Source: a virus. From it: a DNA stretch of 64,000 bases. Below the pieces are notes generated by a model. It saw nothing but the letters and a program-made list of their open reading frames with translations, was not told the DNA's origin and made no database searches. The stretch lies in the UHGV virus genome UHGV-0148165, one strand, 5' to 3'. This document shows, one piece after another, positions 601-3,843 of this stretch; the stretch's first letter is position 1; the number at the start of each line of letters is the position of its first letter. The position numbers were made by a program, and so were the translations under genes.

Positions 601-1629
601 ATGTCATCAATACCTTGGATTGATAATGAGTTTGCATACCGTGCATTAGCTCATTTACCTAAATTCACACAAGTAAATAATAGTTCAACTTTTAAATTGC
701 GGTTTAGATGCCCTGTTTGTGGAGATTCAAAAACCGACCAGAATAAAGCTCGTGGATGGTATTATGGTGATAATAATGAAGGAAATATTCATTGTTATAA
801 CTGTAACTATCATGCACCAATAGGAATATATTTAAAGGAGTTTGAACCTGATTTATATCGTGAGTATATCTTTGAAATAAGAAAAGAAAAAGGTAAAAGT
901 CGTCCAGTAGAAAAACCTAAAGAACTTCCTAAACATCCTGAGAAGAAAATAATTAAATCTCTTCCGTCATGTGTTAGATTAGATAAACTGGCGGAAGACC
1001 ATCCAATTATAAAATATGTAAAAGCTCGTTGTATTCCAAAGGATAAATGGAAATATCTTTGGTTTACAACCGAATGGCCTAAATTAGTTAATAGCATAGC
1101 ACCGGGAACATACAAAAAGGAAATTTCTGAGCCTCGTCTTGTTATTCCAATTTATAATGCTAATGGAAAAGCTGAGTCTTTTCAAGGACGTGCATTAAAG
1201 AAAGATGCTCCTCAAAAATATATCACCATTAAAGCTTATCCTGAGGCAACAAAAATATATGGAGTCGAACGAGTTAAAGATGGCGATGTATATGTTCTAG
1301 AAGGACCTATAGATTCACTTTTTATTGAAAATGGTATAGCTATTACGGGTGGTCAATTAGACCTAGAAATTGTTCCATTTAAAGATAGACGCGTGTGGGT
1401 TTTAGATAATGAACCTCGTCACCCTGACACTATCAAGCGAATGACTAAATTAGTTGATGCAGGAGAAAGGGTTATGTTTTGGGATAAATCTCCCTGGAAA
1501 TCAAAAGATGTTAATGATATGATTAGAAAGGAAGGTGCAACCACTGAACAAATTATGGAATATATGAAAAATAATATTGCCCAGGGGTTGATGGCTAAAA
1601 TGCGGTTATCTAAATATTCCAAGATTTAA
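601..1629 (+). CDS. 61: DNA primase gp61, 342 aa
   Basis: N-terminal zinc ribbon CPVCGDS...CYNCNYH; length and sequence match T4 primase as recalled; synteny 61-dam-56. Confidence 0.9.
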   Translation: MSSIPWIDNEFAYRALAHLPKFTQVNNSSTFKLRFRCPVCGDSKTDQNKARGWYYGDNNEGNIHCYNCNYHAPIGIYLKEFEPDLYREYIFEIRKEKGKSRPVEKPKELPKHPEKKIIKSLPSCVRLDKLAEDHPIIKYVKARCIPKDKWKYLWFTTEWPKLVNSIAPGTYKKEISEPRLVIPIYNANGKAESFQGRALKKDAPQKYITIKAYPEATKIYGVERVKDGDVYVLEGPIDSLFIENGIAITGGQLDLEIVPFKDRRVWVLDNEPRHPDTIKRMTKLVDAGERVMFWDKSPWKSKDVNDMIRKEGATTEQIMEYMKNNIAQGLMAKMRLSKYSKI

Positions 1630-1826
1630 ATTAACCCAACTAAAGCAAATGCTAGATCTACGAATGTATCAAGAGTAACTACTGGAATATTAACACCATG
1701 CGCAATTGCAATTGGTGATAAAATAAAGTTCCAGAGTAAAATTCCTACCATAGCAGAAATAGTAAAAGCTATACGTTTCTTATTACCTTTGATGGCATTA
1801 ACAAGTGCCATTAATTTTTGTGCCAT
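1626..1826 (-). CDS. candidate small hydrophobic membrane protein, 66 aa, convergent with and overlapping the 3' end of gene 61
   Basis: minus-strand ORF fills an otherwise 295-bp noncoding gap; AAGGAGG 4 nt upstream of its ATG; predicted TM segment IAFTISAMVGILLWNFILSPIAIA. Confidence 0.3.
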   Translation of the reverse strand: MAQKLMALVNAIKGNKKRIAFTISAMVGILLWNFILSPIAIAHGVNIPVVTLDTFVDLAFALVGLI

Positions 1827-1869
1827 ATGTCCTCCTTTAAATTAATATTATCACAAATTTCATAAATTT

Positions 1870-1902
1870 GTTTACTTTCTCAGCTTGTTATGGTATTATA
1901 AA
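1870..1902 (+). promoter_or_regulatory. T4 early-type promoter (GTTTAC -35, about 18-nt spacer, TATTAT -10)
   Basis: GTTTAC 1870-1875, TATTAT 1894-1899; upstream of ORF 1925. Confidence 0.5.
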
Positions 1903-1924: not shown

Positions 1925-3264
<1,340 letters not shown>

Positions 3265-3324
3265 TTGCTTACATATTCAAATGATATAATTATTTAACTT
3301 ATTAATGAATTGAAAGGAAAAATA

Positions 3325-3843
3325 ATGGCTCACTTTAATGAATGCGCTCATTTGATCGAAGGTGTTGATAAAGCAACTCGTGCATATACTGAGAATATTA
3401 TGCACAATATTGACCCATTGCAGGTTATGCTTGATATGCAGCGGTCTTTACAGATTCGTTTGGCTAATGATAAGCCAGAAACAAATCGTCATCCTGATTC
3501 ACTTGAAACCGCAGGAGAAGTTCTTGCTTGGCTGCGAAACCAAGACGATTATATCGCAGACGAAACTCGCGAGCTATATACTTCTCTTGGTGGTATGAGT
3601 AATGGTGAAAAAGAAGCTTCTGCTGTATGGAAACCTTGGAAGAAACGTTATTCTGAAATGCAATCCAAGAAAATTCAAGATTTATCTCCTGAAGATCAAC
3701 TTGAAATTAAATTTGAACTAATTGACCAATTTCACTTTTTCATGAATAAATTTATTGCTCTTGGAATGTCAGCTGAAGAAATCTTTAAACTTTATTATCT
3801 GAAAAATGCTGAAAACTTCGCTCGTCAAGATCGAGGTTATTAA
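3325..3843 (+). CDS. 56: dCTP pyrophosphatase gp56 (MazG-like all-alpha NTP pyrophosphatase), 172 aa
   Basis: ATG 3325 after AAGGA (track ORF starts at upstream TTG 3310); acidic ETAGEVLAWL...DETRE motif. Confidence 0.85.
   Translation: MAHFNECAHLIEGVDKATRAYTENIMHNIDPLQVMLDMQRSLQIRLANDKPETNRHPDSLETAGEVLAWLRNQDDYIADETRELYTSLGGMSNGEKEASAVWKPWKKRYSEMQSKKIQDLSPEDQLEIKFELIDQFHFFMNKFIALGMSAEEIFKLYYLKNAENFARQDRGY

Follow-up and report, generated by a model that had tools for sequence, protein, structure and literature searches.

The strand opposite the gap behind gene 61, the DNA primase gene, carries a 66-codon ORF at 1626–1826 (minus strand) of the window, by which we mean the whole 64,000-nt stretch of UHGV virus genome UHGV-0148165 analysed here. 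We regard this ORF with high confidence as a real protein-coding gene, not a chance ORF. The more complete reading, in which this real gene belongs to a family with late-type expression signals and encodes a membrane protein, is in our view likely. The feature is an already catalogued hypothetical gene rather than a discovery and corresponds to dam.1, a member of PHROG 2024. An initial annotation made from the sequence alone had described it as a genuine gene for a small membrane protein, and this description agrees with the conservation of its frame in at least seven Tevenvirinae-type genera, with purifying selection and with a predicted TM helix.

Layout of the locus and distribution of the gene

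The first 4 kb of the window are >99% identical to Tequatrovirus (T4-like) phages, and the plus strand of the window corresponds to the early direction of T4. This strand contains a 61.2-like short ORF of 118 aa (76–432), 61.1 (434–598), gene 61 (601–1629), an ORF of 186 aa (1925–2485), dam (2485–3264) and gene 56 (3310–3843). The non-coding gap of about 295 bp that the initial annotation had placed after gene 61 is exact, as it spans positions 1630–1924 up to the start of the next plus-strand gene at 1925. This gap is made up of the 66-codon gene, a gene 61 terminator embedded in the first codons of this gene, and an early promoter. The terminator and the early promoter had been missed by the initial annotation, as had the existing annotation of the gene in hundreds of T4-like genomes and a 1-nt deletion in the late-promoter box of the window copy.

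The ORF is initiated by an ATG at 1826–1824 and its 66-aa product is MAQKLMALVNAIKGNKKRIAFTISAMVGILLWNFILSPIAIAHGVNIPVVTLDTFVDLAFALVGLI. As previously described, the sequence reads AAGGAGG, a Shine-Dalgarno motif (1837–1831, minus strand), followed by the 4-nt spacer ACAT and the ATG. The stop codon of the ORF (complement of 1626–1628) and that of gene 61 (1627–1629) are both TAA and are interlocked, with 2 nt in common, which bears out the overlap of stops noted earlier. The broader claim of an antisense overlap with the 3′ end of the primase gene is correct in that an overlap is present, but the annotated spans, and hence the coding overlap, share only 4 nt. No paralogue of the ORF was identified elsewhere within the 64-kb window.

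Three further features of this region deserve mention in their own right. Positions 1–9 of the window read GATCTACAC, which we take to be the end of P5, followed by GTAAGGAG at 10–17, an i5 index, and by TCGTCGGCAGCGTCAGATGTGTATAAGAGACAG at 18–50, which we take to be the Nextera read-1 transposase adapter (Illumina/Nextera library sequence); untrimmed adapter was assembled onto the contig end, and phage sequence starts at ~51. The 118-aa ORF matches only the C-terminal half of the Pfam AdfA (anti-DarT factor) profile (positions 115–211 of 211; E = 1.7e-7). Relatives carry versions of this 61.2/AdfA ORF of 118 aa, 157 aa or the full length of 208 aa; close relatives thus differ in how far the gene is truncated. 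The 186-aa ORF matches PHROG 8706, and in phage Shinka it bears the name “putative restriction endonuclease”. Below the significance threshold it weakly resembles the GATC restriction endonuclease DpnII (E = 0.0045) as well as BanI; a PDB search with this ORF gave no match. T4 retains only its last ~20 codons (locus L004, 2640–2702, minus strand), so part of the T4 dam-61 gap is a deletion scar. The 186-aa ORF may be the relic of a DpnII-type restriction-modification system that was the source of the phage dam.

A CDS identical to the 66-codon ORF is annotated in phages 107, fPS-65 and GADU22. GenBank records name the product “putative transmembrane protein” (phages 107 and U115), “Phage protein” (fPS-65) or, elsewhere, “hypothetical protein”, and the RB33 record (KM607001) gives the label dam.1. 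The exact 66-aa protein is found on 111 contigs of a large protein collection under the name “putative transmembrane protein”, and residues 3–66 match the profile of PHROG 2024, to which no function is assigned there, with E = 1.6e-31. The dam.1 of RB33, the phage 107 gene (WEW53785.1) and PHROG 2024 represent the same gene as the window ORF, with identical or >89% identical protein, and the RB33 and phage 107 genes share its position and orientation beside the primase gene. T4 itself has an intact copy at NC_000866 17738–17938 (plus strand) with three amino-acid differences. The T4 reference record calls no gene at this place, which lies inside its 309-bp dam-61 “gap”, and a further T4 record (KJ477684) likewise lacks it.

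The initial annotation had named conservation of the frame in relatives as one of the points on which the gene could fail. Using tblastn, we identified the ORF in 693 phage records, and in 687 of these the frame is intact at a coverage of at least 80%. Convergence with the 3′ end of the primase gene, also proposed earlier, recurs at the same position in at least seven Tevenvirinae-type genera, namely Tequatrovirus, Mosigvirus, Gaprivervirus, Dhakavirus, Marfavirus, Kanagawavirus and Moonvirus. The relatives form two subfamilies. Subfamily A copies with 50–55% identity are present in Mosigvirus and Gaprivervirus. Subfamily B proteins are 20–30% identical to the window protein and occur as a second tandem copy in Gaprivervirus and as the sole copy in Dhakavirus (JS98), Marfavirus, Kanagawavirus (Q7622, CIP9, PEi26) and Moonvirus (Merlin); they are unannotated in JS98, JS10, IME08 and PEi26. 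Subfamily B resembles the window ORF in its length of 61–69 aa, its convergent position at the primase 3′ end, its late-promoter box and GGAGG, and an invariant W-N...P...G...P pattern, and differs in the low identity and in a less hydrophobic C-terminal tail.

In every case the ORF abuts the 3′ end of the primase gene in convergent orientation, and the overlap is usually 4 nt (window, T4, Mosigvirus, Dhakavirus, Marfa, CIP9 and Merlin). What adjoins it at its promoter end is not constant and can be the 186-aa ORF with dam, dam alone, or gene 56. Synteny is thus constant on the primase side only, and we therefore conclude that the ORF accompanies the primase gene rather than the dam cassette.

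Two observations concern individual relatives. Gaprivervirus genomes carry two tandem paralogues, one of each subfamily (L006, 1495–1901; L018, 2495–2899; and L007). The primase-proximal B copy is truncated or frameshifted in Gaprivervirus VR20 (L018, 46 aa) and TH40 (L007), and these broken copies hint that subfamilies A and B are redundant. Compared with the T4-type protein, a 61-aa homologue (P0034) shows hardly any replacements other than A-to-V, T-to-I, S-to-F, P-to-L and H-to-Y, and in the DNA each of these is a C-to-T change. This entry seems to have been put together from T4-type phage reads that had undergone bisulfite or deaminase conversion, rather than to represent a natural variant.

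Selection on the reading frame

To describe selection we used 21 Tequatrovirus loci, which represent 16 distinct alleles and contain neither indels nor stops in the ORF. Variable sites among these alleles are distributed over codon positions 1, 2 and 3 as 11, 5 and 16, and the amino-acid changes are conservative (I/V, A/V/T, K/R, N/D, N/S and A/S). The pooled pN/pS in Tequatrovirus is 0.20 in the ORF frame versus 0.33–1.09 in the five other frames. The comparison of synonymous and nonsynonymous changes among T4-like genomes, which had been suggested as a check, supports the gene: approximately 19 of the 33 inferred changes are synonymous, versus 24% expected (binomial P = 3e-5).

Gene 61 of the same phages provides a reference for these values. 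The pS is 0.136 in the ORF and 0.119 in gene 61, which indicates comparable neutral rates, and the pN/pS of 0.195 in the ORF versus 0.042 in gene 61 corresponds to weaker constraint than that on the primase. Judged by these ratios, the constraint on the ORF is real but moderate, typical of an accessory protein. Across genera, a 13-sequence alignment that includes the ~20–30% identical relatives shows W32, N33, P38, G44, P48 and G64 to be invariant and A40 to be nearly so.

Expression signals on both strands

Upstream of the ORF, GGAGG or GGAG is located 4–8 nt before the ATG in every homologue examined, and a T4 late-promoter box, which is TATAAATA or deviates from it at the first base (−13), is located 15–22 nt before the ATG in nearly every lineage; the flanking sequence is unalignable between lineages. 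The box reads GATAAATA in T4 and in the closest relatives of the window (phage 107 type), AATAAATA in JS98, Mosigvirus and one Tequatrovirus group, CATAAATA in Gaprivervirus and PEi26, and TATAAATA in Marfa, Q7622 and CIP9. Merlin, with ATTAAATA and two mismatches to the consensus, is the exception. Apart from L145 and Merlin, either NATAAATA or TATAAATA is present at every further Tequatrovirus locus examined and in the other genera. Ten unrelated upstream contexts contain the motif ATAAATA, for which a chance frequency of ~0.003 per 20-nt window is expected from its only 18 occurrences on both strands of the 64-kb window. For 50 T4 late sites, Geiduschek and Kassavetis give 32 perfect boxes, nine with A at −13 and single deviations in the rest; the form with A(−13) is accepted as a late promoter (PMC2988020).

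Based on these signals, we infer that the family represents a monocistronic late gene with a leader of 9–16 nt. The earlier proposal that the ORF would be transcribed against the early direction is consistent with the late-promoter box of the relatives, which points along the ORF. Literature searches retrieved no transcript, ribosome-footprint or proteomic evidence for the ORF and nothing relevant under the name dam.1, and the text of the HIDEN-SEQ preprint does not mention the locus.

The window copy departs from its family at this site. Its late-promoter box is the degenerate GATAATAT (1852–1845, minus strand), which has lost one A relative to GATAAATA; this deletion is the sole difference from the RB33 and phage 107 genes. 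The same single-A deletion is present in BCPEco_001 (L145), and all remaining loci examined keep ATAAATA. BCPEco_001 is one of three near-identical “BCP” phages that are the best matches of the window; the other two, BCPShso_001 and BCPSen_003, match the window with the same identity and over the same length. Taking TATAAATA or a single-base variant of it, ~6 nt ahead of the start site and close before the gene, as the mark of a late gene, the family carries such a box and the window copy does not. The deletion should cripple the late promoter, and late-promoter use in the lineage of the window appears doubtful. The deletion also creates TGTGATAAT, an extended −10-like element, which a consensus scan pairs with TAAACA (TAAACA-16-GATAAT with TG, minus strand). 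The deletion probably arose recently, given that the coding sequence has not changed.

On the plus strand, an intrinsic-terminator-like hairpin (1789–1814) with a T-tract (1815–1824, TTTTTG after the hairpin) falls within codons 1–13 of the minus-strand ORF. This is the only terminator-like site in 1300–2100, versus 0.3 expected, and the fPS-65 record annotates a terminator at the same site. With the hairpin inside the first codons of the ORF, gene 61 transcripts would therefore carry a ~190-nt 3′ UTR that is antisense to nearly the whole ORF. Tequatrovirus genomes keep the hairpin, and Mosigvirus and Gaprivervirus lack it. We considered and rejected the hairpin as the cause of N-terminal peptide conservation, as the peptide L(I/V)(N/Q)AIKG is kept in genera without the hairpin. 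Further downstream, the promoter scan identified an early-type promoter for the 186-aa ORF and dam (TTTACT-17-TATTAT with TG; 1871–1899, plus strand), and fPS-65 has a “predicted early promoter” annotated at the same place. The locus offers a clean case of two convergent genes that share a terminator and coding sequence.

This arrangement raises the question of whether the main function lies at the RNA level, either as late antisense shut-off of the primase or as silencing of the ORF early in infection by the gene 61 3′ UTR, in the manner of a type I toxin-antitoxin system. The convergent arrangement with its 4-nt overlap is kept in nearly all lineages, the 3′ UTR of gene 61 spans almost the whole ORF in Tequatrovirus, and no minus-strand intrinsic terminator was identified after the ORF within gene 61, so that a late transcript could continue antisense into the primase gene. 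Published work shows that both strands of T4 are transcribed, at different times (PMC2988020). Measured against a type I toxin-antitoxin system, the locus has the small hydrophobic ORF, and its only predicted antisense RNA is the gene 61 3′ UTR. This RNA would end at the 1789–1824 terminator, the position of which is not conserved outside Tequatrovirus, and no dedicated antisense promoter was found. The synonymous bias and the invariant residues at saturated divergence reflect constraint on the protein, for which a role of the RNA by itself cannot account. We therefore consider a main function in RNA rather unlikely; an RNA role could exist as an addition to the protein and not as its replacement.

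The predicted protein and its possible roles

The clear TM segment described by the initial annotation is well supported by both methods applied here. The Kyte-Doolittle maximum over 19 residues is 2.02 at residues 23–41 of the window protein and 1.9–2.4 across the family, and AlphaFold2, supplied with a 12-sequence alignment, predicted helices at residues 2–12, 16–42 and 52–63 and a loop at 43–51 (mean pLDDT 79.5). The N-terminal 20 residues have a net charge of +2 to +7 family-wide and the C-terminal part is neutral or acidic (net charge −2 in the window protein, which has no basic tail). By the positive-inside rule, this charge pattern predicts an N-in, C-out single-pass topology with a ~20-residue periplasmic tail. 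Hydropathy and the AlphaFold2 model together suggest that the product likely crosses the inner membrane once, with its N-terminus inside and a short tail in the periplasm. The C-terminal 18 residues of subfamily B have a mean Kyte-Doolittle value of 0.6–1.4 and are too polar to span a membrane. The corresponding residues of the T4 subfamily are hydrophobic (mean 2.05), and because of this the tail of the T4 subfamily may lie in or on the membrane.

Searches beyond the family returned little. Profile searches of Pfam, NCBIfam and PDB gave no match up to E = 10. A phmmer search against 1.84 billion representatives identified only T4-like homologues and three spurious long repeat proteins (P0032, P0036 and P0037), and Foldseek against BFVD identified family members only. 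Rfam gave nothing but a chance snoRNA-like match (E = 0.82), and the ~80 loci listed by a degenerate DNA pattern scan of IMG/VR were mostly random matches.

A holin or pinholin-like lysis protein would also be small, membrane-embedded and, as the ORF appears to be from its promoter signals, expressed late; the UniProt entry of phage OE5505 is so named, and UniRef and BFVD label one homologue “Holin”. This label is an unreviewed automatic name, and the holin families of Pfam and NCBIfam were unmatched even at E = 10. The predicted structure has only one confident TM helix (16–42), as the C-terminal helix comprises just 12 residues, and the charged C-terminal tail is absent. Nor is there an endolysin or spanin neighbour, as the ORF is flanked by the primase gene and by dam or gene 56. 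T4 already possesses holin T with the antiholins RI and RIII. We give the holin reading only a slim chance.

Another alternative is that the frame is open by chance and that the gap holds nothing but the 3′ UTR and terminator of gene 61 and the promoter of the gene that follows. The terminator and early promoter are truly located in the gap, the curators of T4 called no gene here, and the ORF is short and lies in an AT-rich genome. Against this, seven genera retain the ORF intact and in synteny even where identity falls to 20–30%, W, N, P and G residues in it are invariant, and pN/pS is lowest in the ORF frame. The Shine-Dalgarno motif and late-promoter boxes are conserved in otherwise unalignable contexts, and the peptide is conserved in Mosigvirus and Gaprivervirus although the terminator hairpin is absent there. 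The comparative sequence data largely refute the chance-frame reading, and we consider it very improbable.

Least credible of all is a C-terminal extension of the primase by readthrough of the gene 61 TAA, which we rejected: the gene 61 frame is open past this TAA for 71 codons (1630–1842, plus strand), for 70 in T4 and also in some relatives, with a pN/pS of 0.33, but eight Tequatrovirus loci (L013, L139–L144 and L147) close it at codon 24 and the Gaprivervirus copy nearer to gene 61 closes it after 6 codons, so that the open frame is a shadow of the minus-strand gene, and a low pN/pS is expected of a frame that shadows a constrained gene on the other strand. We know of no readthrough signal for T4 gene 61.

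We thus return to a protein-coding gene (dam.1, PHROG 2024) on the strand opposite the gap as the best explanation. In the family, this gene would be transcribed late by RNA polymerase with gp55, gp33 and gp45 into an mRNA with a short leader that contains the Shine-Dalgarno motif. Early and middle transcripts of gene 61 would stop at the hairpin terminator in the first codons of the ORF. The protein is predicted to have a basic amphipathic N-terminus in the cytoplasm and one TM helix (~16–42) with the invariant W32-N33, followed by a turn at P38/G44/P48 and a short acidic C-terminal helix that is probably periplasmic.

As a guess made with low confidence, the protein may have an envelope role late in infection, such as in lysis timing, lysis inhibition or exclusion, and be dispensable in the laboratory. 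A secondary interplay with gene 61 at the RNA level, suggested by the fixed convergent layout, is likewise a guess. We see only a small chance that this gene, kept across enterobacterial T-even-type phages, encodes a late envelope factor that has so far gone unrecognised, one that might modulate holin T/RI lysis inhibition or late superinfection exclusion; the fixed convergent placement of the gene could then also link its late transcription to the shut-off of primase expression.

The practical value of these results is in annotation. T4 serves as the reference for its family of viruses. Its RefSeq record leaves out this conserved gene, which is real by the comparative evidence and probably expressed late, and so do the records of JS98, JS10, IME08 and PEi26; omics studies mapped to NC_000866 will miss the gene because it is absent from that record. 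The late programme of T-even phages gains one more small membrane protein, and no concept is altered.

Among known systems, class II holins and pinholins share with the 66-aa protein their small size, hydrophobicity and late expression, the last of which is predicted here from promoter signals. They differ from it in having two TM segments, a basic C-terminal tail and a place in a lysis cassette. Other small membrane proteins of T4, namely Imm, Sp and RI, act on the envelope and, like the 66-aa protein as predicted, are small phage-encoded proteins of the inner membrane or facing the periplasm. No sequence similarity outside the family was detected. Imm and Sp are early genes, and unlike them the family of the 66-aa ORF carries late-promoter signals.
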